Shown here: piece after piece, positions 845-30,248 of the stretch
Layout of the letters: every line of letters begins with the position of its first letter
Position numbering within the stretch: position 1 is the first letter of the stretch
Made by a program: the position numbers and the translations under genes
Notes under the pieces: model-generated
What the model was told of the DNA's origin: nothing
Database searches by the model: none
What the model saw: the letters and a program-made list of their open reading frames with translations, nothing else
Assembly: GCF_000829315.1 (NCBI RefSeq)
Contig: NZ_AP013028.1
Span: forward strand, 960,001-992,000
DNA: 32,000 nt
Origin: Wolbachia endosymbiont of Cimex lectularius
Lineage (GTDB): Bacteria > Pseudomonadota > Alphaproteobacteria > Rickettsiales > Anaplasmataceae
Reading direction: 5' to 3'

Positions 845-1774
845 TCAAAGAGGAACAAGTTTGGCAAAAAATAATGATATTATTAGTGGAACGTAAAATA
901 GTCCCACTGCAGTACTGATGAGAAGCAGCAAAGTAGCTCTATCTGGTTGATAATTTAAAATATTAGCAAGTACTACACTGGATCCAGAAACTGGAATAAT
1001 AGCTAACAACATCAGCGCTTTATATATACTCTCATCGTATATACCTGTGATATGTTTGTCTATCAGGACAATTCCCAAAACAAATAATGGCCAGAATACG
1101 TACTTTGCTGTAATAGTGGTTAAAGCGAGTTTCCAATCTATTTTAAAATTTGTAATTTGTGCAATACTCACTCCAAGTAGCACCATTCCTAATGTAATAA
1201 ATGTACTTCTAATATTCATCATAACATCTGTTAGAAAAGCAGGTATTTGTATATCGCATACACTCAAAAAGAAGCCCAGAATCATCGCATAGGACGAAGG
1301 AAGTCTGAACAACCTGAACATGCATTCTTTTGCGGTGTATATACCATTTGCAGCTATATAAAATCCTAAGCTATTTTCAAACAGTGCCATTCCTATATAA
1401 CAGACAACATATACAGACACCGAATCTTCATCAAACAAAGTCATAGCAATTGGCAAGCCAAAATAACCCATACTTGTACTGCCTGAGCTAAATGCCAATA
1501 TGTTTTTCGTGTTGTCCTTAAATAAAAAAGAAGAAAGATAATACACCGATAAGGACATAGTACTACCTATAAACCATATCAAAATCGGCAAAGAAATTAC
1601 TTTTAAATTGACCTCTGTATGAGATACTCCATACAGAATCACTATTGGATTAGCTATATAAAAGAGTATTTGAGATATAGTATTTCTATCAATCTTAAGG
1701 CATTTTCCTGCTAAATAACCAATAAGTATTGTAATATAAATAGGTAATATTTTGAGAAAAAGGGTAAAGAACAT
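845..1774 (-). CDS. AEC (auxin efflux carrier) family membrane transporter
   Basis: 309-aa polytopic membrane ORF. N-terminus MFFTLFLKILPIYITILIGYLAGK and overall hydrophobic layout are typical of AEC-family permeases. Confidence 0.7.
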   Translation of the reverse strand: MFFTLFLKILPIYITILIGYLAGKCLKIDRNTISQILFYIANPIVILYGVSHTEVNLKVISLPILIWFIGSTMSLSVYYLSSFLFKDNTKNILAFSSGSTSMGYFGLPIAMTLFDEDSVSVYVVCYIGMALFENSLGFYIAANGIYTAKECMFRLFRLPSSYAMILGFFLSVCDIQIPAFLTDVMMNIRSTFITLGMVLLGVSIAQITNFKIDWKLALTTITAKYVFWPLFVLGIVLIDKHITGIYDESIYKALMLLAIIPVSGSSVVLANILNYQPDRATLLLLISTAVGLFYVPLIISLFFAKLVPL

Positions 1775-2133
1775 ACTGCCTAATTATAATCCTTCTTGAT
1801 ACTTCCAACTGATAAATTGACATTAGATCTTAAGACATTATAAAAGTAAATAAAATTTATTTTCCAATTTACCCAACTCATAGTTATTTAAAAAGACCCA
1901 TTTAGTGCTAAGACCTGCTTTTACAAAGCATAAGAATGATATTTTTATGATAAAATTATGTTAAGTTTTTATAAAGCTTCTTGCATATCTTTCAATAGTG
2001 GTAACTTTGCTAAAAAGCAAAGTTTAGTTTCGCTTGGCTTTATTGTATGCTTTCAGGCGATATAGAATACAAACCCCAACTACTTTCGTTGAAAAATAAG
2101 CGCCTTGTAGGCAAGCATAAACGATAAAACTAA

Positions 2134-3399
2134 TTATACTTTTCCAAAGATAAGTGATGCGTTAGTGCCACCAAAACCAAACGAATTAGAAAGCGCATAT
2201 TGGATTTTATGCTCTTGAGCTTTAAACGGTACAAAATTTAAATCACATCCTTCTGAAGGTTTGTGCAAGTTTAAAGTTGGGGGAGTAATTCCTTCATTTA
2301 ATGCAAGAATACTGAATATCGCTTCAACGCTACCTGCAGCACCAAGTAAATGTCCTATGGAAGATTTGGTTGAAGAAACTGGTATCTTATAAGCGTAGTC
2401 ACCAAATAACTGTTTTATTGCTATTACTTCGATTTTATCTCCAAGTGGCGTTGAAGTTCCATGTGCATTGATATACCCGATTTGATTTGGACCAATTTGT
2501 GCACTCTGTAAGGCAAGCTGTATTGCTTTCAACGCACCTCTTCCGCTTTCATGCGGAGCGGTAATATGATAAGCATCCCCCGTTAGTCCATACCCAGTAA
2601 GTTCTGCATATATTTTTGCTCCTCTTCTCTTTGCATGTTCATACTCTTCCAATACTAGTATACCTGCTCCTTCACCCATAACAAATCCATCGCGTTCTTT
2701 ATCCCACGGTCTTGAAGCTTCTTCAGGCTTGTCATTAAACTTAGTTGATAATGCCTTCATAGATGCAAAGCCTGCAATTCCAACCCTACAAAGAGCACTT
2801 TCTGCCCCACCTGCAATCATTACATCTGTTTCACCAAGTTTTATAGCTCTTGCTGAGTTTATGATTGCATGCGCACCTGTTGCACATGCGGTTACCGCTG
2901 AATCGTTTGGGCCTGTAAATTCGTATTTAATAGAAATATGGCCAGATATCAAATTTATCAAACTTGCAGGAACAAAAAATGGGCTGACACGCCTAGGCCC
3001 TTTTTCCTGCATAATAATTACGTTCTCCTGAATTGATGGAAGACCACCTATACCAGAGCCAACAACCACACCAACGCGTTCTCGATCGATATTTTGACTT
3101 TCTAAGATTAGTGAATCGTTCACTGCCTGAATAGCGGCTGCAATGCCGTAATGGATAAAACGATCTGTCCTTTTTAGGTCTTTTTCAGAGATATAATCTA
3201 GCGGGTTAAAACAGTGTCCAATGTTATCACCTTGTAGGGGAACTTGTCCTGCGATCTTGCAAGCAAGATCGGAAGCATCAAATCTGCTGATTTCCCTTAT
3301 ACCAGACTCACCATCTACTAACTTAAGCCAAGTGTTTTCAACATCTGCCGCCAGTGGAGTAATTGAGCCAATACCGGTCACTACTACTCTTCTGCTCAT
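2134..3399 (-). CDS. fabF: 3-oxoacyl-ACP synthase II
   Basis: 421 aa. Has RRVVVTGIG, active-site context AVTACATG, HGTSTPLGD and NSFGFGGTNASL. Lies immediately downstream of acpP. Confidence 0.95.
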   Translation of the reverse strand: MSRRVVVTGIGSITPLAADVENTWLKLVDGESGIREISRFDASDLACKIAGQVPLQGDNIGHCFNPLDYISEKDLKRTDRFIHYGIAAAIQAVNDSLILESQNIDRERVGVVVGSGIGGLPSIQENVIIMQEKGPRRVSPFFVPASLINLISGHISIKYEFTGPNDSAVTACATGAHAIINSARAIKLGETDVMIAGGAESALCRVGIAGFASMKALSTKFNDKPEEASRPWDKERDGFVMGEGAGILVLEEYEHAKRRGAKIYAELTGYGLTGDAYHITAPHESGRGALKAIQLALQSAQIGPNQIGYINAHGTSTPLGDKIEVIAIKQLFGDYAYKIPVSSTKSSIGHLLGAAGSVEAIFSILALNEGITPPTLNLHKPSEGCDLNFVPFKAQEHKIQYALSNSFGFGGTNASLIFGKV

Positions 3400-3405
3400 T
3401 TAATA

Positions 3406-3672
3406 CTAATTATTGTTTTTTTTATTACTGATGTACTCAGCTATCTGCTCTACAGTTTCCATTTTTTGTGCATCTTCATCAGGAATTTCTATGCCAAACT
3501 CTTCTTCTGCCGCCATGATTATCTCAACTGCATCTAAACTGTCTGCGCCATGCTCTGAAAGCTTTGAGGAGCTGCTAAACTTCTCTACATCCTTACTAAT
3601 GTGCTCTAACACAATCTTTTTTACTTTTTCTTCTATGTCTTCTCTAGTGCTTTTTGCTAGTTCGCTACTCAT
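3406..3672 (-). CDS. acpP: Acyl carrier protein
   Basis: 88 aa with the phosphopantetheine-attachment motif GADSLD followed by EEEFGIEIPDEDA. Confidence 0.93.
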   Translation of the reverse strand: MSSELAKSTREDIEEKVKKIVLEHISKDVEKFSSSSKLSEHGADSLDAVEIIMAAEEEFGIEIPDEDAQKMETVEQIAEYISNKKNNN

Positions 3673-3823
3673 TTTTTACCAAAAAATAACCTATTCTTTG
3701 ATGTTATAAAAAATTTTCATGTTTGCAATACCTTTTATGATTGATAGACTATTACAAAATTTTCTATCGCCCTAGCTGAAATATGCTTCAACATTATGTG
3801 CTGGGAAATTAACAAACTCGCAA

Positions 3824-4624
3824 ATGCTAGACGAAATAACAAAAAATTTACTTATCGCAGAAATAAACAAATTTCTGCCTGAAGATAGCCAAAGCAAGCT
3901 TATATCAGCTATGCGTTATATGCTTCTTGCCCCTGCAAAATATATACGTCCATTTTTAGTCACAGCTTCATCACGAGTATTTAATGTGAAAGCTGAGAAA
4001 GTAATACCAATTGCTGTGGCAGTTGAGTGTGTTCACACCTACTCTCTAATTCACGATGATTTGCCATGTATGGACAATAGCGATATCCGCAGAGGTCAGC
4101 TAAGTTGCCATAAAAGATTTGACGAAGCAACAGCAGTGCTTGCTGGAGATGCGCTACTTACCCTCGCTTTTGAAATACTGTCTTCGCTAAATGAGGATAG
4201 CAACAAATGCTGTGAAATTATAAAAGTACTCTCTCAAGCGATAGGAACTAGGGGAATGGTAGGAGGGCAGATTTTGGATATTGATGCAGATTCCTCTAAA
4301 ATAAAAGAAATTCATTTATTAAAAACCGCAAAACTATTTGCAGCTTCATGTGAAATAGGCGCTATAATGGGAAATGCTACAGATGAGCAACGAAGAGCGT
4401 TACATGACTATGGAATAAACCTAGGGCTTATCTTTCAAGCCAAAGATGATATTGAAGACCACAAACAAGATGAGGTAAGTAATTTAATGTCTATACTCGA
4501 TAAAAGTGAAACAAAGAACTATATAGAAAGTCTCTTTAAACAAGCTTTGGATAATTTGAGTGAACTTTCAGGCGAAACTAATTATTTATACAATTTATTG
4601 AATCGGGTAAAAAACGATGGTTAG
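3824..4624 (+). CDS. ispA: Polyprenyl (farnesyl/geranyl) diphosphate synthase
   Basis: First and second Asp-rich motifs are present (LIHDDLPCMDNSDIRRG and FQAKDDIED). Confidence 0.88.
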   Translation: MLDEITKNLLIAEINKFLPEDSQSKLISAMRYMLLAPAKYIRPFLVTASSRVFNVKAEKVIPIAVAVECVHTYSLIHDDLPCMDNSDIRRGQLSCHKRFDEATAVLAGDALLTLAFEILSSLNEDSNKCCEIIKVLSQAIGTRGMVGGQILDIDADSSKIKEIHLLKTAKLFAASCEIGAIMGNATDEQRRALHDYGINLGLIFQAKDDIEDHKQDEVSNLMSILDKSETKNYIESLFKQALDNLSELSGETNYLYNLLNRVKNDG

Positions 4625-5516
4625 GGAAATTATATTACAATTGCTCATTTCCATAGTAATAATTTTCACTTTAACTTCCGCTTTTGTGTTCACCATCGTT
4701 CAAATAAACAAAAGCAGGCCAGAAAAGAGAGACAAGCTTTATGAGTTAAATACTACGAATGATGGTTTGGTACAGACAATAGCATATTACCTAGTGAAGC
4801 CAATACTTGAATCAGCACTTGATCACTATATCGAAAAGCATGGGTTGAAGGAGTATTTAAAAGAAATAACACAGCAGGAGAGAGAGGAAAATTCAATAAA
4901 CTTCTATGAAATTACAGAAGGCAGTGGCAGCAGAGCTCTATGTGGTCAAGAAGTCCTGCTGCAAATGTATAAAATATCTAATAACCTAGCGGCACCACTT
5001 CCGAGTCAAGTCCCTAATGTTACCTTGAAAATAGGTCAAGATGATTGGAAAGAGGTGGGTCTAGGAATAATGGGTATGAAAGAAGGAGGAGAGCATGTAG
5101 TTACTGTAAACATTGCCAATGACAACAAAATGGACTTTAACTCTTACTACGTCAAACTAATCGAAGTAAAAGATAAATACCCCGACTCAGTAAATAATAT
5201 GATGATTTTCAATGACTTAATTAACAGGGCTGGAAAACAAGTGAGATGTGGTGACGAAGTGTCAATTAAGTACAGCGTAATGGGTCATAATGGTGAATAT
5301 ATAATCAAAGATCAAACAGCGCAATTCAAAGTTGGTGATAAAAAAGTACCGCTTGCCATAGAGCTTGGAGTGGTTGGAATGAGAGCTGGTAATAACAGAA
5401 CTATCATTTCTCCACCAGAACTTTTGAATGTTACTGATGGTATGTTAATCGGAGATATAGATTTTGACGAAGAAAATGTTTCTATAATTAATCTCAGCTT
5501 AGATGCCAAAGTTTAA
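4617..5516 (+). CDS. Membrane-anchored protein with two degenerate FKBP-type PPIase-like domains
   Basis: N-terminal TM helix (LLISIVIIFTLTSAFVFTIV). Two segments resemble the FKBP core (...KIGQDDWKEVGLGIMGMKEGGEHVVTV and FKVGDKKVPLAIELGVVGMRAGNNRTIISPPELL). Start overlaps the ispA stop by 8 nt (ATGGTTAG). Confidence 0.55.
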   Translation: MVREIILQLLISIVIIFTLTSAFVFTIVQINKSRPEKRDKLYELNTTNDGLVQTIAYYLVKPILESALDHYIEKHGLKEYLKEITQQEREENSINFYEITEGSGSRALCGQEVLLQMYKISNNLAAPLPSQVPNVTLKIGQDDWKEVGLGIMGMKEGGEHVVTVNIANDNKMDFNSYYVKLIEVKDKYPDSVNNMMIFNDLINRAGKQVRCGDEVSIKYSVMGHNGEYIIKDQTAQFKVGDKKVPLAIELGVVGMRAGNNRTIISPPELLNVTDGMLIGDIDFDEENVSIINLSLDAKV

Positions 5517-5528: not shown

Positions 5529-7037
5529 TTAAAATATTACTTGGTAACTGAAGAAAATGACAAAAGTACATATCGCAGTGACAACTGGTGGTAAAACCAG
5601 AAAAATAGGTGTCTTTTTAACGAAAAAGTTCTTAGAAGGCTTTGAGAAAAAAGCATTGTAAACTATTAGCAAAAAGTACATAGCATTTAGTATAGTGCTT
5701 ACTATTAACACAAGAGTAACAAATACAGAAAGTGCTACATTGCCGGAGCTAAAAACAGCCTGAAAAATGAGAAACTTACCCCAGAAGGTTGGAGCAGGTG
5801 GCACTCCGATCATAGATAACGCACCTATAGTAAATGCTGCCATAGTAATTGGCATATTTCGTCCTATGCCGTGAATTCTATCTACATATTTCTCACCTGT
5901 TTTCGTTATTATGCTGCCTGCAACAAAGAATAGAGTGATTTTTGCAAATGCATGACAAACTAACTGAAAAACTGCAACTCTTGCGCTAAGGTTGCTAAAA
6001 ATTGAAGCGAATAGTATAACATATGATAATTGGGAAACGGTAGAGTAGGCAAGCAATTTTTTCAATTCCTTCTGCTTGAGTGCAGTCAGTGAAGCAACAA
6101 TGATGGTGAATCCTGCAGCATAAGGCAGCCATCCTCCAGCAAACCAACTTTGTTGCGCAAAGCGTTGCAAATTATCGGTGCCAAAAGTGTATAATATAAC
6201 TTTTATAATGATGAAAACCCCGGATTTCACAACAGCGACAGCATGTAGCAGCGCGCTCACAGGAGTTGGTGCAACCATTGCTTTTGGTAACCAAAAGTGC
6301 ATTGGCATTAATGCAGCTTTGCCTATTCCGTAAATCAGCATAGCAAAACACACTGCAATGAAAGTGACGAGCGAAGTGTCAAATTTAAATATTCCACCAC
6401 TTACAAAGTCTAAAGTATGAAATTTACTGTATAAGAAACCGAGAACTGGAAAAAATAGTACTAAGGAAGAAAAAAACAGCACACCAAAATAATAACGCCC
6501 AGCTATCATTGATTCATTTGTTGTGTTATAGGTGACAAGAGGATAAGTACTCATAGTCAAGAGCTCATAAAAGACAAATGTAGTAAGCAAATCGCCAGAA
6601 AAAGCAATAAACATTGCACAACTGATCGATATTGAAAGAAAACACAGGAAATTTGAATAATTATTACCAGGATAGTTATTCTGCATATAACATATTGCGT
6701 ATACGCTAGTTAATATCCATAAAAATGATATTAATAAACTAAATACCACTCCAGTGGACTCTAGCTTTAAACTAATGTGCAAGTTATTGCCAAAATCCAT
6801 AAGGATAAATTGAGAATAATCACCATATGCCCAATATAAAGTGCACAGACACGCATATGTAAATAGAAGTATAGAAGAGGCAACAGTAACGCCGTTGCTT
6901 ACTCTAGGCCATTTGCCGGTAAAAAAGATAACCACTGCGCCAAGCAGCGGAATCAGCGCAGTAATTAACAAATAATTTTCAGTGATTGCAAATGGTAAGG
7001 AAAGAGGTGTTAAAACATATTCCACTAAATAATTCAT
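5529..7037 (-). CDS. Proton-conducting membrane transporter subunit (Mrp antiporter subunit D / complex I NuoL/M/N family)
   Basis: 502-aa polytopic ORF with the family signature GKAALMPMHFWLPKAMVAPTPVSALLHAVAVVKSGVF. Not adjacent to other nuo genes, which favours an MrpD/MnhD-like assignment. Confidence 0.75.
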   Translation of the reverse strand: MNYLVEYVLTPLSLPFAITENYLLITALIPLLGAVVIFFTGKWPRVSNGVTVASSILLFTYACLCTLYWAYGDYSQFILMDFGNNLHISLKLESTGVVFSLLISFLWILTSVYAICYMQNNYPGNNYSNFLCFLSISISCAMFIAFSGDLLTTFVFYELLTMSTYPLVTYNTTNESMIAGRYYFGVLFFSSLVLFFPVLGFLYSKFHTLDFVSGGIFKFDTSLVTFIAVCFAMLIYGIGKAALMPMHFWLPKAMVAPTPVSALLHAVAVVKSGVFIIIKVILYTFGTDNLQRFAQQSWFAGGWLPYAAGFTIIVASLTALKQKELKKLLAYSTVSQLSYVILFASIFSNLSARVAVFQLVCHAFAKITLFFVAGSIITKTGEKYVDRIHGIGRNMPITMAAFTIGALSMIGVPPAPTFWGKFLIFQAVFSSGNVALSVFVTLVLIVSTILNAMYFLLIVYNAFFSKPSKNFFVKKTPIFLVLPPVVTAICTFVIFFSYQVIF

Positions 7038-8856: not shown

Positions 8857-9630
8857 ATCACTATCTGACTCTCTTTTGTGAGGAGGCAGTGGTGATGCAC
8901 TCTGATTTATAGGCTTTGCTTGCGCTTTTAATGCATTCTGAATATCTTGAAGATTTTGGTATATACTTTTCCTCCGGCACTATTTTTGATACCTTAAATC
9001 CCTCTATTACTCGATCCGAAGCATTTTTTATTATCTCCTGAACCTTTTGAATATCTATTTGCTTACTCCCTTTGACAACAATTTCTTTTCTGTCCTTACT
9101 GCTCACACCATAGCCTTGCTCTTTAAGTGCCCTTATTGCCTCCTCTTTAAACGAGTCTTGAAAATTATGTACTTCTTTCTTCAATTTATGACCATTTTTA
9201 ATAAGAACAGACTTAATTGTTTCCATTTCTTCCTGTAAAGAAAAAGTGTTTTTATTAATTGTAGCATATAGTGATTCGTCTTTCCTTAAATTTTCACAGA
9301 TTGGTTCTTGTATCAAACTGGTATTGATAAACTTTTGTACCTTTCCTAGATAATCAGCATCTCCTACCACTTTACCATTTTTGTTTATAGGCGCCTGTAT
9401 ACCTTCAAATTTGATTTTTTTTATATCTTCAATGTTCAGCCCATTTTCTTCAAGCCATCCCTCTCTTTTGCTCATTGATTCAACAAACCCATTAATTTTT
9501 TTTATATTACCTGCACTATCATCAACCAACATAACAGTTTTTGGTAACTGACCATTGTGATTGTTCTTATAGTTCACAATTGCTCTGCAGATATGCAGAT
9601 TTTTTCCAACTTGACTTTGTTGCTCTCTAA

Positions 9631-10491
9631 GAACCTGTTTAAAATCTTCGTAACAGGAGAGAAATGAAGGAGAGGACTATCATCTGTAAGCTAGTGTTGA
9701 GCTTCCGCTCGCAATTTTTCCACAATCGCCTGCACTTTTCTAACCAGGCAAAAGAGCGTTCAACAACCCATCTTTTTGGCAATACGACGAAAGTGTGTAA
9801 CTCACTTCGCTTTATTACTTCAACAGTTGCACCAATGATAGCTTTTATTTGTGTTGCAAAATTTTCTCCTGTGTAGCCAGCATCAACCAGTATGTTTTTA
9901 ACTTCAGAGAGGTTTGCTTTAGCATTTTCGACCATTTTCACAGCACTGCTACGGTCAGTTGCTTCTGCCGTTGTTACATAAATTGCATGTGGCAAACCTT
10001 GTGTATCAACTGCAATATGGCGCTTTATCCCTGAAATCTTTTTACCTGCATCATAGCCTTTTTTTTTCAGCAGTATCTGCGTTTTTAACGCTTTGAGAAT
10101 CAATTATATAAAAGCTAGTTTTCTCTTTCCGACCATTGCTGATACGGACCTCTCCAACTAATTTTTTTTAAGACTAATTCCAACAAGTTTGGCTCTTCTC
10201 CATTCTTTTTACTCCACACTCGAAAATAGTAATATACGCTTTCCCATCTTGGAAAACCCTTTGGTAACATCCTCCACTGACAACCACTTTTTAAGACGTA
10301 CAACACCCCACAAAATACGTCATACAAATCAAGTTTTCTTGGTTTTATTTTCTGCTTGCTACTCTCCAAAATTAGCCTGATTTTTTCAAACTGCTCTTGA
10401 CTTATATTACTTGGATAACTTTTCTGCATAGACACCTCATTATTAATCTATGCTTACTTTACCTCACATTTCCAAGATTTTAAACAGGTTC
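9631..10491 (-). mobile_element. IS5-family insertion sequence, copy 1 (861 bp)
   Basis: 18-bp perfect terminal IRs GAACCTGTTTAAAATCTT. Flanked by the direct repeat TAA (9628-9630 / 10492-10494). Near-identical to copies 2 and 3. Confidence 0.93.
9639..10435 (-). CDS. IS5-family DDE transposase (OrfA 10115-10435, OrfB 9639-10103, with a bridging segment in a third frame)
   Basis: OrfA is an HTH-like part (YVLKSGCQWRMLP). The middle frame encodes ...CIIDSQSVKNADTAEKK. OrfB encodes GYDAGKKISGIKRHIAVDTQG... The frames meet at T8 (10162-10169) and T9 (10059-10067) on the + strand. Confidence 0.85.
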
Positions 10492-10571
10492 TAACATCTT
10501 GCCTTGGCAACTTGGTATCATAATCTGCTGGAAATCCGCCAAACACAGAAACACTGTCTGTCTGCTTCTTA

Positions 10572-11432
10572 GAACCTGTTTAAAATCTTCGTAACAGGAG
10601 AGAAATGAAGGAGAGGACTATCATCTGTAAGCTAGTGTTGAGCTTCCGCTCGCAATTTTTCCACAATCGCCTGCACTTTTCTAACCAGGCAAAAGAGCGT
10701 TCAACAACCCATCTTTTTGGCAATACGACGAAAGTGTGTAACTCACTTCGCTTTATTACTTCAACAGTCGCACCAATGATAGCTTTTATTTGTGTTGCAA
10801 AATTTTCTCCTGTGTAGCCAGCATCAACCAGTATGTTTTTAACTTCAGAGAGGTTTGCTTTAGCATTTTCGACCATTTTCACAGCACTGCTACGGTCAGT
10901 TGCTTCTGCCGTTGTTACATAAATTGCATGTGGCAAACCTTGTGTATCAACTGCAATATGGCGCTTTATCCCTGAAATCTTTTTACCTGCATCATAGCCT
11001 TTTTTTTTCAGCAGTATCTGCGTTTTTAACGCTTTGAGAATCAATTATACAAAAGCTAGTTTTCTCTTTCCGACCATTGCTGATACGGACCTCTCCAACT
11101 AATTTTTTTTAAGACTAATTCCAACAAGCTTGGCTCTTCTCCATTCTTTTTACTCCACACTCGAAAATAGTAATATACGCTTTCCCATCTTGGAAAACCC
11201 TTTGGTAACATCCTCCACTGACAACCACTTTTTAAGACGTACAACACCCCACAAAATACGTCATACAAATCAAGTTTTCTTGGTTTTGTTTTCTGCTTGC
11301 TACTCTCCAAAATTGGCCTGATTTTTTCAAACTGCTCTTGACTTATATTACTTGGATAACTTTTCTGCATAGACACCTCATTATTAATCTATGCTTACTT
11401 TACCTCACATTTCCAAGATTTTAAACAGGTTC
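10572..11432 (-). mobile_element. IS5-family insertion sequence, copy 2 (861 bp)
   Basis: Same IRs as copy 1. Flanked by the direct repeat TTA (10569-10571 / 11433-11435). Same orientation as copy 1, 80 bp away. Confidence 0.93.
10580..11376 (-). CDS. IS5-family DDE transposase (three-frame organisation as in copy 1)
   Basis: OrfB is identical in amino-acid sequence to copy 1. OrfA differs at 3 residues. Homopolymers lie at 11103-11110 and 11000-11008. Confidence 0.85.
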
Positions 11433-11878
11433 TTAGATAAGCCCAAATAATCTTCTGCTACTTCTTTCACAGCATTTGGATATCCTGTGTATGATGCAAT
11501 GTTAACTTCCACTCCATTTGAAAGTGCAGATTGCAACACAGATTTTAATGTTTCCTCGTTTCTTATTCCGTCTGTATTCTTTAGAAATTTTCTTATATCA
11601 GCATCTGTTACTGCATTATTTTGAGTAGAATCAAGGTCACTTTTTCCTAACCTAGAAAAAGCATTATGCATATGCCCATTAGTGAGAGTGTTATCAAAAT
11701 CGAATATTAACAGGGCATTATTTCCTTTAGCCATATCTTCACCTCATAATTTTTACCAATCAAGGATAAAGGCTAACACTAATAGATTAATTATTTACTA
11801 TAGTGCTTTCAAGTTAATAAAAAGATAATAAGAAAGAAAAGCTAATAGTGTCGGGAGAAGACTTAAAAAGAGACAAGG

Positions 11879-13596: not shown

Positions 13597-13689
13597 CAGA
13601 TTATACTTAAAGGGTCAATAATTGCAATTAGACTTCTCGCATGAAAAGGCAATTATTTTTGGCGTTTTTTGTGTGCTCTTAAATTGCCT

Positions 13690-14030
13690 TAGCTATAAAT
13701 ATTAAGAAATTTACCAAACGAAAAAAAGGCAAAAGAACCCTGTGGTAGAAGTTGCTCACTTTCTAATCCTGCAAATTGGCGTACTATACTGTCTTAAACG
13801 ACTTATAAGCGCATTTCAGCTTGTATAGGGAAAAACCTAGAAGTCTAGGTAAAATTAATAAAGACATAAGGTGCACATAGTGTAAAAAATTAAACATAAG
13901 ACGCCAACCATAATACTCTTGTCGTTTAATCTGCACAGATGAAGATAACTAAATACCTCCAATTTTATAATAATGGGACTGGCGGAGGTTGTCAAGTAGT
14001 TTTTTTGTTTCAATTGTTGGTCTTTTAGAA
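13690..14030 (-). repeat. Promoter-bearing dispersed repeat, copy R1 (diverged)
   Basis: Shares conserved blocks with 18041-18427, 25890-26270 and 29274-29631. Starts TAGCTATAAATATTAAGAAATTTACCAAA. On the minus strand it carries TTGACA (13990-13995), 17 bp, TATTAT (13967-13972), pointing toward nuoE. The right boundary is approximate. Confidence 0.75.
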
Positions 14031-14819
14031 ATGGCGTTTTACAGTATCATACTATCTGCAGAGTGATATTGTTTATTCAACCAGTCTGCAAATTCCTTAC
14101 TGCTGCTTATTTCCCATATCTCGCTTTGTAGATCATGGTGACACTTATAATCTCCTTGCCCAATACAGTGGAATTGTTTGACAATCGTCTTAGGATGCCG
14201 ATCGCTTAAGAACTTTGATACTACAATTCCCGTTTTATAAGGATTATCGCTTGTTTGATCGTAATAACTATAATATATATTATATAAACTCAAGTTCTCA
14301 GACTTCACTTTATCGATTCCCTGCTTAAAACGAGCCTCACAGAAGGAGTTTTTCTCGAGTCCATCGCATGTTTTTTCGCATGCTATAAAGTCTGCACTTC
14401 CCTCAAAAACTGGCAATTGAAGCTTTGGCGACAAACCTTTAATGACTGGCTGATAAAACTTGAGAAACTGAATGCAATGGGCAAATTCATGGGAAATATG
14501 ATACTCAATAGCATCGTCAGAAAAGGGCGTGTTAAAAAGCAATCCATCCTTTTATTAAAAAAAAGAAATACATCTGAAGCTGAGAACTTTGAAAGCTCTC
14601 TATACTGGGGGTGGTTATTATTGACTGTGAGTCCAGTCCAAGTTTTCGGTGGATCGAAGTTGTGTACTTTTTTCAAAACTTCAGCAAGTTGATCCCTATT
14701 TTCCAGCATAAAAATGCGAAAATTTGCGTAATCATCAATCTGAACATCAAAAAACCTACAGCACCTCTTTAAAGTGTCATTGGTGGTTTCTTCGATGTTT
14801 TTTAATCTTTCACCGCTAA

Positions 14820-15679
14820 GAACCTGTTTAAAATCTTGGAAATGTGAGGTAAAGTAAGCATAGATTAATAATGAGGTGTCTATGCAGAAAAGTTATCCAA
14901 GTAATATAAGTCAAGAGCAGTTTGAAAAAATCGGGCCAATTTTGGAGAGTAGCAAGCAGAAAACAAAACCAAGAAAACTTGATTTGTATGACGTATTTTG
15001 TGGGGTGTTGTACGTCTTAAAAAGTGGTTGTCAGTGGAGGATGTTACCAAAGGGTTTTCCAAGATGGGAAAGCGTATATTACTATTTTCGAGTGTGGAGT
15101 AAAAAGAATGGAGAAGAGCCAAGCTTGTTGGAATTAGTCTTAAAAAAAATTAGTTGGAGAGGTCCGTATCAGCAATGGTCGGAAAGAGAAAACTAGCTTT
15201 TGTATAATTGATTCTCAAAGCGTTAAAAACGCAGATACTGCTGAAAAAAAAAGGCTATGATGCAGGTAAAAAGATTTCAGGGATAAAGCGCCATATTGCA
15301 GTTGATACACAAGGTTTGCCACATGCAATTTATGTAACAACGGCAGAAGCAACTGACCGTAGCAGTGCTGTGAAAATGGTCGAAAATGCTAAAGCAAACC
15401 TCTCTGAAGTTAAAAACATACTGGTTGATGCTGGCTACACAGGAGAAAATTTTGTAACACAAATAAAAGCTATCATTGGTGCGACTGTTGAAGTAATAAA
15501 GCGAAGTGAGTTACACACTTTCGTCGTATTGCCAAAAAGATGGGTTGTTGAACGCTCTTTTGTCTGGTAGAAAAGTGCAGGCGATTGTGGAAAAATTGCG
15601 AGCGGAAGCTCAACACTAGCTTACAGATGATAGTCCTCTCCTTCATTTCTCTCCTGTTACGAAGATTTTAAACAGGTTC
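14820..15679 (+). mobile_element. IS5-family insertion sequence, copy 3 (860 bp, opposite orientation)
   Basis: Same IRs as copies 1 and 2. Flanked by TAA (14817-14819 / 15680-15682). One base shorter than copies 1 and 2. Confidence 0.93.
14876..15570 (+). pseudogene. IS5-family transposase of copy 3 with an extra inactivating 1-bp deletion
   Basis: Copies 1 and 2 read TTTGCCTGGTTAGAAAAG (SFAWLEK...). Copy 3 reads TTTGTCTGGTAGAAAAG (SFVW*), truncating OrfB by 34 codons. A8 lies at 15142-15149 and A9 at 15244-15252. Confidence 0.8.
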
Positions 15680-16008
15680 TAAGATTCTTATGAAATACTT
15701 CCACTGTCAAATTACTTCCTTCAACACTATAAACATGCTTATCAGGAAGGATTCCACCCACCTCAACTTCAAGTTCATCTCTAGGCTCGTAGTTTGGCTT
15801 ACTAGGACCAAAGAATTCTTTAATGCTGCTAAAAAGGCTCATACAATTTTATGGTGTTGATATATCTATTATAGCATAATAAATGATTTCCGTCAAGGAG
15901 TACAGCTAGCTCAAGCTATATAACCGCTTACAGAAGCTTTAAGCAGTTTTGGTTTTATTGATATATTACCTCAGAATATAAAAAAAAATTAATTTATTAA
16001 TATTTTTG

Positions 16009-18041: not shown

Positions 18042-18427
18042 TACCAATTCCCACTATACAGAAAGCGATAGATAACAGTGGAAAAAAGCTATAACGTCAT
18101 CCGATAGAGACGAAAAACACTACTTGACAAATTCTTCCAATCCTTTTATCATAGTATTGAAGCTATTTGTTTAACTTCCCAATCTGTGCAAGTTAAAATG
18201 ACAAGAAAACTTGTATTTGGCGTATTATTGTTTAATTTTTCGCACTATGTGCACTGCATGTCTTTTTAAAACTTCGGGTTTTTACCCATACAAGCTGAAA
18301 CGCGCTTATAAGTCGTTTAAGACATCACCCAATGCCGGATTTTAAAATAGAGAGTGGAATAACTAGCTACCTCGGGGTTTTATTGTCCTTTTCTTCTGTC
18401 TGGTAAATTTCTTAATATTTATAGCTA
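18041..18427 (+). repeat. Promoter-bearing dispersed repeat, copy R2
   Basis: Near-identical over about 330 bp to 29274-29631. Carries TTGACA (18124-18129), 17 bp, TATCAT (18147-18152). Ends ...GGTAAATTTCTTAATATTTATAGCTA. Confidence 0.85.
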
Positions 18428-19344: not shown

Positions 19345-19467
19345 AAATACCCCATTGAATTAATAAATACTTATTATAATAAAGTTACGCTTTCTTGTCA
19401 ACTCGGGTATAAACATACCCACAAGCAACCAAAAATTTTTTTAACCTCCGATTCATAACCTTCACTC

Positions 19468-20347
19468 ACAACTGTACGAACATTGTGATTTGAGCCTACC
19501 ACTAGGGTGTCATGCCAGTGCTTGACACTGGCATCCAGGAATTTTATTAAGTGTGCGCCAAGCAAAGTGCGTAGAGTTCAGTTGGTGAAAATCCAACCCA
19601 GGCAAAGTCTAGCCAACAGCCTGGAACAGACTATTATGCTGCGTAAGGTAACGAGCGTAGTAAAGCTAATGGAATGGATAACATAGGGTACAACGAAAGT
19701 GAAGGTATTGAGTCACGAAATAAAGAACATCGTAGAGGTCGACACTGTACTTAAAGTGGAAGACAGAATGAAGAATAACGCTAAGGCAAGATATTACTCA
19801 CTCTACCGGGATCATAGGCCGTATCATGTGTTAAGATGGAATTTACGTAAACTTGGGAGATCCATTGTATTCCTGACAGGTATGCTGGAACAAGTCAACA
19901 AAGGCAAGGACTAGCAGAAGATGCAGTGGAAGTCGGACTGATTGATAGTACTCAGAGTGTGGAAAAGCCACATACGAGGGGAAGCGATCAGCAGTGTAGA
20001 GACAGGTTTATGGATTGTTACACCAACACAACAGAGGTTGGAATATGAAACAAGGAAAAGTAAACCAGATAGCAGAAGTTAAAAAAAACGCTGTGAATGC
20101 TACACTGAAGAGCCGTATGCGGGAAAGTCGCAAGTACGGTTCTGTTGGGGGGATCATAGCAGTGAAATCGAATAAGAGGATTTAAAAGTTATGATCTCTA
20201 CCAGACTGGTGAGTATAAAAGTAGCTGTTTTATGTTAAAATACGACGTTTTGATGATTATGGAAAGGCTGGATCCCAGTGTCGGAGCACTGGGATGACAC
20301 CGTCTGTTACGCAAATTACCTGCTAATTGCAATGTTCGTACAGTTGT
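19468..20347. mobile_element. Double-hairpin MITE copy carrying a group II intron insertion
   Basis: TIRs ACAACTGTACGAACATTG / CAATGTTCGTACAGTTGT. Perfect 11-bp direct repeat AACCTTCACTC on both flanks (19457-19467 / 20348-20358). The arms are collinear with the 217-bp element at 29825-30041. Confidence 0.85.
19553..20206 (+). mobile_element. ORF-less group II intron (ribozyme only, IEP deleted)
   Basis: The 5' end is GTGCGCC. Domain V GAGCCGTATGCGGGAAAGTCGCAAGTACGGTTC lies at 20110-20142 (AGC triad, GAAA loop, 2-nt bulge). A domain VI-like helix follows and the 3' end is ...AC. Comparison with the empty site at 29900-29912 defines the insertion. Only a short ORF stub (ATGAAACAAGGAAAAGTAAACCAG..., from about 20045) remains where an RT/maturase would be expected. 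The 3' boundary is +/- 8 nt. Confidence 0.8.
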
Positions 20348-20480
20348 AACCTTCACTCAATAATTAACAGAATAACTCATTATGGCATGCATATAGAAAA
20401 ATGCAAGCTTTTATAAAGATCGATTGAAATTTCTGAGCTTCGGCTATACTATTATTCAAGTAAAAAAATAAAAAGCCATT

Positions 20481-21764
20481 GTGTCAAATAAAATAGGTTT
20501 TTTGGCTGTTCTTGCCTTAGTGATTAGTAGTCAAATTGGCTCTGGAATTTTTATGCTTCCAATCAGCCTTGCACCATACGGCGCTTATAGCCTTATAAGC
20601 TGGGTGATATCAGGATTTGGTGCTATATCTCTCGCTTTGGTTTTTGCCTTACTCTGTGCAAAATTTCCAGAAACGGGTGGTCCTCATATTTATGTAAAAC
20701 ATGCCTTTGGCTCTACAGCAGCTTTTTTTGTTGGTTGGACATATTGGGCAAGCTCATGGGTTGGTTCAACAGCTGTAACAGTTGCAAGTATTGGTTATTT
20801 AGCTCCACTTTTTCACAATGATATGCAAAATATACGTTTACTTTTAGAGATAACACTAATTTTAGCTATCATGCTAATAAACTTAAGAGGGATAACTACC
20901 GTTGGACACGTTGAGCTCCTATTGATGATTGTTAAAATCACCATATTGTTTGCAATACCAATAGCAGCACTATTTTTTTTCGATAGAAATAACTTTATTG
21001 TAAGCGAGAAAGTTTCGAATCTCACAATATCTCAAATTTTTGCTCGCTCTTCATTGCTCACTTTATGGTGCTTTATCGGGCTTGAAACAGTAACAGCATC
21101 TGCAGGATCAGTCGAGAATCCGAGCAAAACAATACCAAGAGCAATAGTACTTGGCACGTTCTCTGTTGCTATCATATATTTTATTAATAACCTTGCAATT
21201 ATGGGATTGATAAATGGCAATCATCTAGCTAATTCAAAAGCACCATATGTTGATGCGATAAAAATAGTTTTACCTGGTAGTTGGTATTTAATAGTTTCCA
21301 TTATTGCTTTTATCGTTTCCACAAGTAGTCTAAACGCTTGGTTCTTGGCTGATGGACAAGTTGCTTTAGGTCTTGCAAAAGATAAGTTAATGCCACAACT
21401 TTTTGCTAAAAGAAACAAACATGATGCCCCTTTTTGTGGAATGATAATCAATATGTTAGGGATATTAGTTTTACTTGTTCTAACGTCAAACAAAAATTTT
21501 GCTGAGCAAGTAACTTCAATAATTGATGTTTCTGTAGTTTCATTTTTATTTCTCTATTTAGCATGTAGTTTTGCTTTTCTCAAGGTTAATGTGCAAGAGA
21601 AAAACTACTGCAAATTCTTGATCGGAAGTGTGGCTGTGCTTTTTTGCTGCTGGATAATATATGAAACTCCTATAAACACACTGCTCATGTCAAGTCTGTT
21701 CCCCCTAAGCGGCACACTTATTTATTTACTTTGGTACCACAAAGCGACCTTCCTAAAAGCTTAA
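20481..21764 (+). CDS. APC-superfamily amino acid/polyamine antiporter (APA family, PotE/AdiC/CadB-like), paralog 1
   Basis: 427 aa, GTG start, 12-TM pattern. The N-terminal signature ISSQIGSGIFMLPISLAPYGAYSLISWVISG...FPETGGPHIYVKHAFG resembles basic amino acid/polyamine antiporters. Confidence 0.8.
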   Translation: MSNKIGFLAVLALVISSQIGSGIFMLPISLAPYGAYSLISWVISGFGAISLALVFALLCAKFPETGGPHIYVKHAFGSTAAFFVGWTYWASSWVGSTAVTVASIGYLAPLFHNDMQNIRLLLEITLILAIMLINLRGITTVGHVELLLMIVKITILFAIPIAALFFFDRNNFIVSEKVSNLTISQIFARSSLLTLWCFIGLETVTASAGSVENPSKTIPRAIVLGTFSVAIIYFINNLAIMGLINGNHLANSKAPYVDAIKIVLPGSWYLIVSIIAFIVSTSSLNAWFLADGQVALGLAKDKLMPQLFAKRNKHDAPFCGMIINMLGILVLLVLTSNKNFAEQVTSIIDVSVVSFLFLYLACSFAFLKVNVQEKNYCKFLIGSVAVLFCCWIIYETPINTLLMSSLFPLSGTLIYLLWYHKATFLKA

Positions 21765-21845
21765 CTTAAAGACATAATTTTTTATTTATTAAAACTCTTG
21801 GGGTTAAGTTATACTACTGCCTGTGTTGATAGAATCAGAGGTATT

Positions 21846-23117
21846 GTGTCAAATAAAATAGGTTTTTTAACTGTTTTTGCTTTAGTAATCAGTAGTCAAA
21901 TTGGTTCTGGGGTTTTTATGCTTCCAATCAGCCTTGCGCCATATGGAGCTTATAGCCTCATAAGTTGGGTAATATCAGGAGCTGGTGCTGTGTCTCTTGC
22001 ACTAGTGTTTGCTACGCTATGTGCAAAGTTTCCAGAGACTGGAGGTCCCCACGTTTATGCAAAACATGCCTTTGGTCCTACAGCAGCTTTTTTTGTTGGT
22101 TGGACATATTGGATAATCTCCTGGGTGAGTACAACAGCTCTAATAGTTGTGGGTGTTGGTTATCTTACACCATTTTTCCATGAAGATATCCAAAGCATGC
22201 GTTTGCTTTTAGAGTTGCTACTATTTACAGTCATTACGTTAGTGAATTTAAGAAGAATAGCTACTGCTGGGCGCATTGAGTTTCTACTCACGGTTATAAA
22301 AATTTCTGTATTGCTTGCAATACCTGTAGCAGCGTTGTTTTTTTTCGATAGAAACAACTTTATCATAAGTGAAGAAATCTCAAGTCTTACAGCATCGCAG
22401 ATTCTTGCCCGTTCTACACTTTTGACTTTATGGTGTTTCGTTGGAGTTGAACTGGCAACAGCACCTGCAGGATCGGTTGATAACCCGACCAAAACTATAC
22501 CAAGAGCTGTGGTGCTTGGCACAATCTGCGTTGCTGTTATATATTTTATCAATAATTTCGCGATTATGGGGTTAATAAATGGGAATGATTTAGCAAATTC
22601 AAGAGCACCATATGTTGATGCAATAAAAATTATGCTTTCTGGTAATTGGCATTTGATTATTTCTGTAATTGCATTCATTTTTTGTGTTGGTAGTTTAAAT
22701 GCTTGGGTATTATCTAGTGGACAAGTTGCTTTTGGTCTTGCTGAAGATAAACTTATGCCACAATTCTTTGCTAAAAGGAACAAGCATGGTTCTCCTTTTT
22801 GGGGAATAATAACCAGCTCAGTTGGAACTGCAGTTTTGCTAATCCTTACTTCAAGCAACAATTTTGCTCAGCAAATCACATCGATCATCGACTTTTCTGT
22901 AGTTTCATTTTTATTTGTCTACCTTGCATGCAGCCTTGCTTTTCTAAAGGTTGTTGTAAAGGAGAGAAATTATTACAAGCTTTTAATTGGTAGTATAGCA
23001 ACAATCTTTTGCTGTTGGGTGATACTTGAAACTCCTGTAAACACCTTGCTAATTTCGAGCTTATTCACTGCAAGTGGCATACCTCTTTATTTATTTTGGT
23101 ATCGCAGGGCTTTTTAA
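21846..23117 (+). CDS. APC-superfamily amino acid/polyamine antiporter, paralog 2 (tandem duplicate)
   Basis: Collinear with paralog 1 over its full length. The GTG at 21846 (VSNKIGFL) matches the start context of paralog 1 (ATTGTGTCAAATAAAATAGGTTTTTT). The ORF-track start at 21798 is probably an over-extension. Confidence 0.8.
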   Translation: MSNKIGFLTVFALVISSQIGSGVFMLPISLAPYGAYSLISWVISGAGAVSLALVFATLCAKFPETGGPHVYAKHAFGPTAAFFVGWTYWIISWVSTTALIVVGVGYLTPFFHEDIQSMRLLLELLLFTVITLVNLRRIATAGRIEFLLTVIKISVLLAIPVAALFFFDRNNFIISEEISSLTASQILARSTLLTLWCFVGVELATAPAGSVDNPTKTIPRAVVLGTICVAVIYFINNFAIMGLINGNDLANSRAPYVDAIKIMLSGNWHLIISVIAFIFCVGSLNAWVLSSGQVAFGLAEDKLMPQFFAKRNKHGSPFWGIITSSVGTAVLLILTSSNNFAQQITSIIDFSVVSFLFVYLACSLAFLKVVVKERNYYKLLIGSIATIFCCWVILETPVNTLLISSLFTASGIPLYLFWYRRAF

Positions 23118-24911: not shown

Positions 24912-24983
24912 TCCTCGGTAGCTCAGTGGTAGAGCAGTTGGCTGTTAACCAATTGGTCGCTGGTTCGAATCCGGCCCGGGGAG
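24912..24983 (+). tRNA. tRNA-Asn (anticodon GTT)
   Basis: Manual cloverleaf. Acceptor TCCTCGG/CCGGGGA, D-arm GCTC-AGTGGTA-GAGC, anticodon arm GTTGG-CTGTTAA-CCAAT, T-arm GCTGG-TTCGAAT-CCGGC, discriminator G. No encoded CCA. Confidence 0.9.
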
Positions 24984-25009
24984 CTTTTATACTCACTAGC
25001 CTGATAAAG

Positions 25010-25091
25010 TTCCTAGATGCCAGTGTCAGCTACTTGCATGACATCCTTCCTGGTTGAGATTAATCTTAAATCACAATGTTCGTATAGCTGC
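25010..25091 (-). repeat. Half copy (one arm) of the double-hairpin MITE
   Basis: TTCCTAGATGCCAGTGTCAGCTACTTGCATGACATCC...AAATCACAATGTTCGTATAGCTGC aligns with the reverse complement of the MITE left arm, including 15/18 of the TIR. It supplies the last 6 codons and the stop of the terminase fragment ORF. Confidence 0.6.
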
Positions 25092-25502
25092 GACTCTGGA
25101 GGTACTTTCTCTCATCCACTGCAGATATTGCACGGTGCTGTCGACTTGGTCATTGTGATGTGCTTCCGGAAACATTAAAATTTCATACTCAAAGTCATTG
25201 AGCCATATCGCTTGGTGCGGCAGAAAAACTTTTCCAGACTCTATAATGGGAACAATCTGGTGGAATCGAGCGAGTTTGTCATCATGCGGTACTATTTCAA
25301 TAACGGGTAAATCACTGCTTGCCTTCAGCTCTTGCACCAATTGCTGACCACTTGTTTTTGCTTCAATTAAAACTGCGTGTGGTGTCCATCTTGCTGCTAA
25401 GAACAAAACTTGTTCTTTAAGTTTTGGGTACTCGAGTTTTGCACGATATACATCGAGTAAATAAAACTTATTGCCCGCTTTTGCCCAAGTGGTGCAGACC
25501 AC
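25071..25502 (-). pseudogene. Phage terminase large subunit, C-terminal (nuclease) domain fragment
   Basis: 143 aa. YLLDVYRAKLEYPKLKEQV...VLIEAKTSGQQLVQEL...DDKLARFHQIVPIIESGKVFLP...NDFEYEILMFPEAHHNDQVDSTVQYLQW matches the conserved terminase C-terminal domain pattern. The ATPase N-terminal two-thirds is absent and the ORF is bounded on both sides by hairpin repeats. Confidence 0.8.
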
Positions 25503-25685
25503 CGGAAGGGTGTCATTCTAGTGCTCGACACTGGAATCCAGGAAAATTTGCTTGTTCACAAGCAAACTGGTTCGGTAATCATGGAAAGTAGCTAATCTTG
25601 TGCTAAAAACGTTCTTGGTGAGGTTGCATGGGAAGCTGGATTCCAGCGTCACGCGCTGGAATGACACCACTTGCTGTAAAAATAA
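25503..25685. repeat. Double-hairpin palindromic element (MITE-related, no TIRs)
   Basis: GGTGTCATTCTAGTGCTCGACACTGGAATCCAGG ... GCTGGATTCCAGCGTCACGCGCTGGAATGACACC. It has the same hairpin family and head-to-head arrangement as the interior of 29825-30041. Confidence 0.7.
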
Positions 25686-29273: not shown

Positions 29274-29631
29274 ATACCAATTTCCACTGCATAAGGAAAG
29301 GATAGACAACAGAAACGAAAAAACTACTTGACAAATTCTTCCAATCCTTTTATCATGGTATTGAAGCTGTTTGTTTAACTTCCCAATCTATACAGGTTAA
29401 AATGACAAGAAAACTTGTATTTGGCGTACTATTGTTTAATTTTTCGCACTATGTGCACTGCATGTCTTTTTAAAACTTCGGGTTTTTACCCATACAAGCT
29501 GAAACGCGCTTATAAGTCGTTTAAGGCATCACCCAACGCCGGATTTTAAAATAGAGAGTGGAATAACTAGCTACCTCGGGGTTTTATTGTCTTTTTTTCC
29601 TATCTGGTAAATTTCTTAAATATTATAGCTT
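29274..29631 (+). repeat. Promoter-bearing dispersed repeat, copy R4
   Basis: Near-identical to R2. TTGACA (29328-29333), 17 bp, TATCAT (29351-29356). Lacks an approximately 34-bp segment present in R2 and R3 (GTGGAAAAAAGC...GATAGAGAC). Confidence 0.85.
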
Positions 29632-29763: not shown

Positions 29764-29824
29764 TTGCAATTTATGAACGAACATTTGTTTTTACAACAAA
29801 TGTTGTCATTCCAGCGCGTGACGC

Positions 29825-30041
29825 ACAACTGTACGAACATTGTGATTTGAGCCTACCACTAGGGTGTCATGCCAGTGCTTGACACTGGCATCCAGGAATT
29901 TTATTAAGTTAGTGAGTATAAAAGTTATGTTAAAATACAACGTTTGATGATTATGGAAAGGCTGGATCCCAGTGTCGGAGCACTGGGATGACACCGTCTG
30001 TTACACAAATTACCTGCTAATTGCAATGTTTGTACAGTTGT
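29825..30041. mobile_element. Double-hairpin MITE, intact 217-bp copy (empty intron site)
   Basis: 18-bp TIRs with 1 mismatch. Perfect 11-bp direct repeat GCGCGTGACGC on both flanks (29814-29824 / 30042-30052). Joining the flanks rebuilds a hairpin repeat TCATTCCAGCGCGTGACGCTGGAAT, so the MITE is nested inside another palindromic repeat. Confidence 0.85.
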
Positions 30042-30087
30042 GCGCGTGACGCTGGAATCTAGGAATTTTATCAAGTAGGTGAACATA

Positions 30088-30248
30088 CAATGGCGTCAAC
30101 TTAAGAGCTTCCTTGTAAACTTCTTTGTTGAAATAAAATAGAAACAAAAGTGCTGCTTATTGCAGCTTTTGGATAATTTTATGGTAAAAATTTTAGAGAG
30201 AAATTTTATACACGATCACTGACATTTTTCCTTAAGTTGACGCCATTG
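30088..30248. repeat. Perfect 18-bp inverted repeat pair bracketing 125 bp upstream of bfr
   Basis: CAATGGCGTCAACTTAAG (30088-30105) and CTTAAGTTGACGCCATTG (30231-30248). No convincing flanking direct repeat. Confidence 0.6.

Follow-up and report, generated by a model that had tools for sequence, protein, structure and literature searches.

Engineered group II introns such as Ll.LtrB-deltaORF and RmInt1-deltaORF lack the open reading frame (ORF) of domain IV but keep the maturase-binding element D4a, and they need the protein to be supplied in trans. Natural ORF-less introns of Thermosynechococcus elongatus were reportedly described by Mohr and colleagues in 2010. In bacteria, ORF-less introns are regarded as rare and short-lived (PMC4424553). 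Those of T. elongatus co-reside with relatives that encode an intron-encoded protein (IEP), according to Simon et al. 2008 as cited in PMC4424553, which also cites Dai & Zimmerly 2003 for ORF-less and nested introns in Methanosarcina acetivorans. The sole ORF-less bacterial intron reported from a genome without any IEP is C.te.I1 of Clostridium tetani (PMC4424553). Wolbachia introns were assigned to class E in the typing given by Miura et al. 2022 (PMC8919778), and wCle, the supergroup F Wolbachia of the bedbug Cimex lectularius, was reported to have neither a group II intron gene nor a pseudogene of one (Sinha et al., PMC10195089). Here, a 32 kb stretch of wCle (contig NZ_AP013028.1, positions 960,001 to 992,000; the window, in whose numbering all wCle coordinates are given) is analysed. 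It contains a complete group II intron ribozyme of 654 nt without a reverse transcriptase (RT) gene at 19553-20206 on the forward strand, inserted at the centre of a miniature inverted-repeat transposable element (MITE).

The identification of the intron is based on covariance models, its fold and its exact ends. An Rfam scan of the entire window at gathering thresholds (GA) returned two group II matches, both on the forward strand: RF02005 (group-II-D1D4-6) at 19588-19821 with 129.2 bits (GA 49, E 1e-36, full model) and RF00029 (domains V-VI) at 20108-20206 with 56.4 bits (GA 40). The intron starts with GTGCGCC at 19553 and ends with CCAGAC at 20206, corresponding to GUGCG and AC in the RNA. 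Its minimum free energy (MFE) is -187.9 kcal/mol compared to -147.3 +/- 7.1 kcal/mol for shuffled sequences (z = -5.7), and the fold has a six-domain layout. The hallmarks of group II introns are all found, namely six domains, a 5' GUGYG, a 3' AY, the AGC triad in domain V and a bulged A in domain VI. A chance resemblance to a group II intron was ruled out by the E-values of the covariance models, the z-score and five homologous copies elsewhere. A preliminary description, made from the sequence alone, had proposed an ORF-less intron at the MITE centre with the ends GTGCGCC and AC and a domain V followed by a domain VI helix. All of these elements are present with coordinates exact to the base, and the covariance models scored above their thresholds as well as the domain I-III architecture seen on folding agree with it.

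The individual domains were delimited on the forward strand as follows. Domain I, with the exon-binding sites EBS1 and EBS3 and a tetraloop-receptor-like hairpin, spans 19558-19856 in the RNAalifold consensus of six copies. Domains II (19857-19934) and III (19938-19991) are defined by the consensus structure with compensatory pairs. Domain IV is only a stub of 116 nt (19992-20107). Domain V (20109-20143), covered by RF00029, carries the AGC triad and a GAAAG pentaloop common to the entire family; its 14 pairs are retained in all six copies, one of them via a double change from A-U to G-C. Domain VI (20145-20204) has its bulged branch-point A at 20200, the seventh nucleotide from the 3' end, in both the consensus and the single-sequence folds. 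The intron is IIB-like and most probably of bacterial class E, the latter based on the Rfam model for domain I, the 99-nt domains V-VI (D5-D6), the 433 AA IEP of relatives, which lacks an endonuclease (En) domain, and the typing given by Miura et al. (PMC8919778).

The window does not encode an RT/maturase, and a tblastn search with a related 433 AA maturase gave no match. Full-length relatives were instead reached by looking up homologues of the ORF in the domain IV stub. In the Wolbachia of the louse Penenirmus auritus (L012), a 1,923-nt intron encodes a 433 AA RT/maturase with a YADD motif and no endonuclease domain, the ORF being located at positions 498-1799 of the full-length intron. Positions 1-523 of this intron align to 19553-20073 (83 %) and positions 1810-1876 to 20093-20158 (78 %), while nothing aligns between 523 and 1810. 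The deletion in the wCle intron thus comprises about 1,286 nt, from codon 10 of the ORF to just beyond its stop, with the junction near 20073/20093. The stub has kept D4a-like stem-loops, a Shine-Dalgarno sequence, the maturase ATG (20045) and about nine codons, and this retained start, ATGAAACAAGGAAAAGTAAACCAGATAGC, aligns to ATGCAAAGAAAACTAAACCAGATAGC of the full-length relatives. Judged by these alignments, the wCle intron is a descendant of a Wolbachia intron of about 1.9 kb that arose by the near-exact loss of the ORF for a 433 AA En-less RT/maturase. The short stub running into domain V that had been noticed beforehand is therefore real, although it still contains the maturase start, and the proposed alignment to full-length introns, made here with those of other Wolbachia, showed that almost exactly the ORF is missing.

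The stub also accounts for an annotated gene. A 46-codon ORF at 20045-20185 (forward strand), annotated as the hypothetical protein WCLE_010050, starts at the relic ATG and continues through domains V and VI, and its homologues in relatives are located downstream of, or separate from, the real RT gene. Another ORF of 68 AA at 19708-19914 is called in GCA_051710345.1. Both are spurious and are contained entirely within the ribozyme.

The insertion can be read directly because an occupied and an unoccupied copy of the MITE are present in the same window, as had been suggested, with exact junctions. The filled MITE at 19468-20347 consists of 226 bp of MITE sequence and the intron (880 bp in total). 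It is bounded by 18-bp terminal inverted repeats (TIRs) at 19468-19485 and 20330-20347 (ACAACTGTACGAACATTG) and by the 11-bp target-site duplication (TSD) AACCTTCACTC at 19457-19467 and 20348-20358, and its hairpins are located at 19512-19534 and 20272-20295. The empty MITE of 217 bp at 29825-30041 has the same 18-bp TIRs and another 11-bp TSD, GCGCGTGACGC, at 29814-29824 and 30042-30052. The element is thus recognised as a MITE by its short non-coding sequence, its TIRs and TSDs that differ between the copies. The left flank of the intron (19464-19552) matches 29821-29909 at 99 % and the right flank (20249-20347) matches 29943-30041 at 98 %. At the 5' junction, GGAATTTTATTAAGT is followed by GTGCGCCAAGC from 19553; at the 3' junction, TCTCTACCAGAC extends up to 20206 and is followed by TGGTGAGTATAAAAG. 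The empty copy reads TTATTAAGT and then TAGTGAGTATAAAAG without any insert, TTATTAAGT being joined directly to TAGTGAGTAT. A perfect homing site for the intron, TTAAGT/T, is therefore unoccupied at 29904-29910, about 10 kb from the intron. A third copy on the reverse strand (24984-25091) comprises only the left half of the MITE and abuts a tRNA gene (24912-24983) exactly at its 3' end; its centre has diverged to TCAGGC/T and would not match the EBS1 of the intron. Further copies of the MITE were found in other sequences (L001, L003, L013, L023).

The intron recognises this site by base pairing. EBS1 (ACUUAA), located in a hairpin loop at 19749-19754, forms six of six Watson-Crick pairs with the intron-binding site IBS1 (UUAAGU, TTAAGT in the DNA) at 19547-19552 on the forward strand, which is the end of the 5' exon in the MITE centre. 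EBS3 is A19814 and forms an A-U pair with IBS3, T20207, the first base of the 3' exon. The co-variation of both sites with the flanking sequences was assessed over 11 introns. EBS1 varies among the copies at the same loop positions and fits the 5' exon of each copy, with a mean of 5.7/6 pairs for cognate compared to 3.0/6 for non-cognate combinations. Of ten combinations of EBS3 with the +1 nucleotide, nine can pair, and no alignment column other than EBS3 fits the six +1 bases.

An EBS/IBS pairing with the 5' exon had been suggested as a check in the preliminary description, which had also seen in the position beside a strong stem-loop a resemblance to the structure-guided targeting of some bacterial intron classes. 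The MITE-borne copies do sit 13 nt downstream of a 9-bp hairpin, as would be expected if the intron, like those of class C, targeted a stem-loop just upstream. However, the upstream hairpin is strong only at the MITE sites and does not exceed shuffled controls at the site of a nested copy described below, at that of the copy in OZ034722 (L011) or at the sites of the full-length relatives. In addition, domain I matches RF02005 and no IIC model, and the choice of target follows the changes in EBS1 and EBS3. Structure-guided targeting is therefore very improbable. Since the hairpin is restricted to MITE sites and the EBS/IBS pairs co-vary with the targets, sequence-guided targeting of the ordinary IIB type is favoured, and the centre of the MITE is more aptly regarded as a homing site that is harmless and available in multiple copies. 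Membership of class C (IIC) itself was tried and rejected because the hairpin is not common to the sites of the lineage and the best domain I model is RF02005.

The intron belongs to a lineage that is not confined to wCle. Five complete ORF-less relatives were found, all with the same deletion junction as the wCle copy. The closest one (L013, 98.6 % identical, from a Joint Genome Institute (JGI) metagenome) occupies the same MITE centre at another locus, and the next (L014, 96.5 %, from a Logan assembly) a non-MITE site. The other three are the inner intron of a twintron in the Wolbachia of P. auritus (L012, 3509-4162, 88.7 %), a copy in wCon of Cylisticus convexus (L015, 87.0 %) and one in OZ034722 that interrupts a protein-coding sequence (L011, 3508-4158, 85.5 %). 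Once the latter is excised, more than 350 codons can be read as one uninterrupted ORF (region 3200-5060); the 5' end of this interrupted gene is itself replaced by a 3'-truncated full-length intron. In addition, 3' parts of the ORF-less intron occur in L016 and at three contig ends of a Rickettsiales metagenome-assembled genome (MAG; L001-L003), in which the stub junction is invariant. One of the latter (L003, 100-140) has lost the distal part of domain VI (GATCATAGCT joined to ATGATCTC) and has a shortened MITE centre, so that a decaying copy exists beside intact ones. Altogether, at least seven distinct flanks share the deletion junction, with EBS1 and EBS3 matched to those flanks.

The structure of the ribozyme has been maintained across these copies. 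In the six complete ones, 98.1 % of the base-pair cells are standard pairs, and 17 pairs show changes on both sides compared to 6.6 +/- 1.9 for shuffled controls (0 of 500) and to 0-3 after the pairing partners had been shifted, which speaks for selection on the structure. The nearest autonomous introns (L017, L018-L021 and L022) are only 81-84 % identical in domains I-III (D1-D3) and 75-79 % in D5-D6. Because they are so diverged, the ORF-less lineage is considered old and distinct. The shared junction at matched but different sites bears the signatures of repeated reverse-splicing after the loss of the ORF, and such repeated mobility would therefore require a maturase supplied in trans. Taken together, the comparisons establish a non-autonomous lineage that is conserved and has changed its location several times among Wolbachia, with mobilisation in trans and with the target sequence, not a hairpin, as its guide. 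The exact 33-mer of domain V was found in only one Rickettsiales MAG among the genome contigs and in none of the viral contigs, the invariant 27-mer from the 3' side of domain IV into domain V had no matches in viral and metagenome contigs, and a blastn search of the intron against a phage collection gave no match. Full-text searches, whose coverage did not extend to Leclercq et al. 2011, Simon et al. 2008 and Zbase, returned no description of an ORF-less intron or twintron in Wolbachia.

The twintron provides a second pair of filled and empty sites. In L012, an outer intron (1696-4272) contains the ORF-less intron (3509-4162) within its domain IV, 12 nt after the maturase stop, and the D5-D6 of the outer intron resumes at 4175-4272. 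The Wolbachia of Atemnus politus (L017, 2504-4426) has the same outer intron at the same phage-tail locus without an insert. After removal of the inner intron, L012 is contiguous with L017 over 1,923 nt at 96.5 % identity, and L017 therefore represents the empty site. Since the twintron of L012 lies in the tail module of a WO prophage, it is plausible that this prophage served as a vehicle for the ORF-less intron between strains.

The situation in wCle differs from that of the lineage as a whole. Over the 1,136 bp of intergenic DNA that contain the MITE and the intron, the three wCle assemblies compared are 100 % identical, and the locus is present in five. Exact-protein look-ups of the stub ORF and of the 68 AA ORF recovered this one wCle locus only, and none of the best 120 maturase homologues is located on the wCle chromosome. 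Most likely, the wCle copy is a stranded orphan that is still intact, with a predicted functional ribozyme. Without a reported maturase, such an orphan could not retrohome, and the perfect site 10 kb away would therefore stay empty. Due to its intergenic location, it would be a neutral cargo of the MITE, with nothing depending on its removal.

Two other views of the wCle copy were considered. The first is that a resident maturase still actively mobilises the intron in trans. This would fit the observation that bacterial genomes with an ORF-less intron almost always contain related introns that encode an IEP (PMC4424553), as well as the conserved D4a region. Nevertheless, it is highly unlikely given that wCle is reported to be free of intron genes and of their pseudogenes (PMC10195089), that no wCle sequence is found among the best 120 maturase homologues, and that there is only one copy with a perfect target left unoccupied nearby. 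The second view is that the intron is a dead, decaying relic of an extinct intron population, neither mobile nor splicing. The reported lack of a maturase, the apparently single copy, the empty homing site and the intergenic position without a convincing forward-strand promoter found upstream are all compatible with this. However, only about 1.4 % of its positions differ from L013, none of these changes disrupts a helix, and its catalytic landmarks and EBS/IBS matches are all intact. Moreover, immobility is already part of the stranded-orphan reading, so that the inability to splice is all that a relic would add. A dead relic is hence possible but rather unlikely. The preliminary alternative between a dependence on a maturase in trans and a dead copy is thus answered differently for the two levels: the lineage is conserved and was repeatedly mobilised, whereas the wCle copy looks like an intact orphan that is not currently mobilised in trans.

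Overall, the wCle intron is probably a structurally intact, non-autonomous ORF-deletion derivative that homed into a MITE and is now an orphan. According to this explanation, an autonomous Wolbachia intron of about 1.9 kb would have lost its maturase ORF but neither the ribozyme nor the D4a region that surrounds the former start codon. It would then have entered the apical loop of a palindromic MITE of the WsnRNA46 type by reverse splicing and retrohoming, EBS1 (ACUUAA) and EBS3 (A) pairing with the target TTAAGT/T during insertion. The maturase would have been provided in trans by a related intron, either in the ancestor of wCle or in a donor genome. At present, no retrohoming would occur in wCle, and the intron could be removed from RNA by self-splicing only.

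The main competitor of this history is that the intron entered one MITE a single time and that the 880-bp composite was subsequently either moved as a whole by a DNA transposase or copied between MITEs through gene conversion, with the intron as a passive cargo. In favour of this, intact 18-bp TIRs and a private 11-bp TSD enclose the composite, wCle 19467-20278 is 98.0 % identical to L013 1321-2130 at a different locus, and no RT would be needed in wCle, which is reported to lack any maturase. On the other hand, a MITE that was inserted before the intron would show an intact TSD just as well, and a second composite copy with both TSDs was not recovered. The left half of the filled wCle MITE resembles the empty copy of the window more closely (99 % identity) than L013 (92 %), which argues against one inherited block. 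Furthermore, the intron of L002 is located in a TIR-less repeat variant with a different +1 base, and the same sub-lineage also occupies the non-MITE site of L014. A spread as passive cargo is therefore conceivable, but we consider it unlikely. It is likewise doubtful that the intron has been freed from reverse transcription altogether and, lodged at the apex of the palindromic MITE, is carried along when a DNA transposase copies the MITE or when the many WsnRNA46-type repeats undergo gene conversion. If so, it could persist and spread in maturase-less genomes such as wCle, and the MITE family would be a multi-copy homing site and a vehicle at once.

Several points weigh against the preferred history of homing in trans followed by stranding. 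The filled MITEs of wCle and of the MAG and metagenome sequences share an 8-bp insertion, TAGCTGTT, and the right half of the wCle copy is 95-97 % identical to other filled copies compared to 87-91 % to the empty copy. This counts in favour of the cargo scenario, since a shared insertion and similar right halves would also be expected from a spread of the MITE-plus-intron composite or from gene conversion. The mosaic flanks may possibly result from repeated homing with flank conversion, from MITE gene conversion, or from composite transposition followed by recombination. The integrity of the ribozyme is derived from sequence and predicted structure, splicing being predicted, and the covariation was counted on the same six sequences that were used to predict the structure. 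No consistent register of EBS2-IBS2 was found in the relatives, with a 5-bp candidate in wCle (UAAAG at 19721-19725 with UUUUA at -11 to -7). The absence of a maturase in wCle is based on annotation-based literature and indirect look-ups. Finally, the search for the intron of the helper maturase found no autonomous intron closer than 84 % in D1-D3 or 75-79 % in D5-D6. No maturase was found to co-occur with the multi-copy population of MITEs carrying the intron, as the JGI maturase contig that was checked belongs to another sample.

The MITE itself appears to be a WsnRNA46-type palindrome that gained TIRs. Its core in the empty copy (29852-30011) scores 63.4 bits with WsnRNA46 (RF02625) in a local search (E 1.7e-13), slightly short of the GA of 65.3, compared to 75.3 bits for a full member of the family at 25492-25684, and the intron occupies the apical region of this long imperfect palindrome. 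The full member abuts the ORF of a terminase fragment (25071-25502), a prophage remnant. The empty copy and those of L003, L001 and L023 each interrupt the hairpin arm of another WsnRNA46-type repeat, whereas the filled wCle MITE is located in plain intergenic DNA. The preliminary notion of a three-layer nest, with an intron in a MITE in a hairpin repeat, is thus correct insofar as the MITE family favours hairpins and L003 from the related MAG has all three layers, but neither locus in this window does. The empty MITE interrupts a hairpin arm of such a repeat (29766-29824 / 30042-30090), and a near-perfect second target of the intron just downstream in this repeat, AATTTTATCAAGT followed by AGGTGAAC, is unoccupied as well. 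A search with a 32-mer of the MITE found one truncated metagenome contig (L023) and no viral contigs. On L019, sequences similar to the TIRs of the MITE (AACTGTACGAACATT) are present at 467-484 (+) and 5563-5580 (-), 5.1 kb apart, surrounding transposase fragments and a full-length intron. This pair may be a trace of the parent insertion sequence (IS) of the MITE.

The surroundings of the MITE copies contain further repeats. Upstream of both the filled and the empty copy, at 18114-18413 and 29318-29617, a member of another dispersed repeat family is located; the two are about 300 nt long and 96 % identical, and pieces of this repeat also occur at 13670-14026 in inverted orientation. Directly downstream of the filled MITE, two tandem paralogous amino-acid permease genes follow (20481-21764 and 21798-23117, 73-84 % nucleotide identity). 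An IS of about 870 bp is present in three copies that are 99-100 % alike, two in tandem at 9626-10497 (-) and 10567-11438 (-) and one inverted at 14816-15685 (+). Each copy has two short ORFs (106 and 154 AA), and together they bracket about 3.4 kb in a composite-transposon-like arrangement.

The ORF-less lineage, whose members in Wolbachia from bedbugs, lice, isopods and further hosts are 85-99 % identical, amounts to a SINE-like (short interspersed nuclear element-like) non-autonomous parasite of autonomous Wolbachia introns, with helices maintained by compensatory changes and exon-binding sites re-tuned at each new site. Surveys based on RT genes or their annotation would miss such introns, as in wCle, which is cited as intron-free while its intron is annotated as a hypothetical protein. 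The filled and the empty MITE in one genome form a natural target pair for splicing and trans-mobilisation assays, and the WO prophage twintron suggests a route of transfer between strains.

Compared to known systems, the closest ones are the full-length Wolbachia introns (L017, L018-L021 and the outer intron of L012), which share with the wCle intron the RF02005 match, the 5' end GUGCGCCAAG, the positions of EBS1 and EBS3, the 99-nt D5-D6 and the homologous D4a/start-codon region, with 79-84 % identity in D1-D3. They differ in their D5-D6, which are only 75-79 % identical, and in possessing the ORF, within the approximately 1,286 nt that are missing in wCle, and no sampled one is the direct parent. 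Class C introns resemble the wCle intron in their insertion just downstream of a stem-loop and in the use of EBS1 and EBS3, but the hairpin is not shared by the sites of the wCle lineage, and the wCle ribozyme is larger and has a different domain I model. The engineered delta-ORF introns share the design of the deletion, whereas the wCle intron is natural and belongs to a different class. The ORF-less introns of T. elongatus and of other bacteria likewise arose by deletion and have retained the ribozyme, and the maturase of a relative would splice and move them in trans. Multiple copies with diversified target sites are common to T. elongatus and the wCle lineage, but wCle is reported to be maturase-free, and its intron lineage spans several Wolbachia supergroups (85-99 % identity) instead of one genome. 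The twintron of L012 is similar to those of M. acetivorans, in which ORF-less introns home into group II introns. However, the latter are archaeal, are inserted into intron ORFs and form multi-level nests, while the inner intron of L012 is located 12 nt past the ORF stop in domain IV. C.te.I1 is likewise ORF-less and resides in a maturase-free genome, yet it is located in a gene and shows robust self-splicing and alternative splicing, whereas the wCle intron is intergenic, lies in a MITE and is known from its sequence alone. The mechanism is thus not new; what the wCle intron adds to these systems is the persistence of an ORF-less lineage, an orphan in a genome listed as intron-free, and a MITE of the WsnRNA46 type as the homing site.

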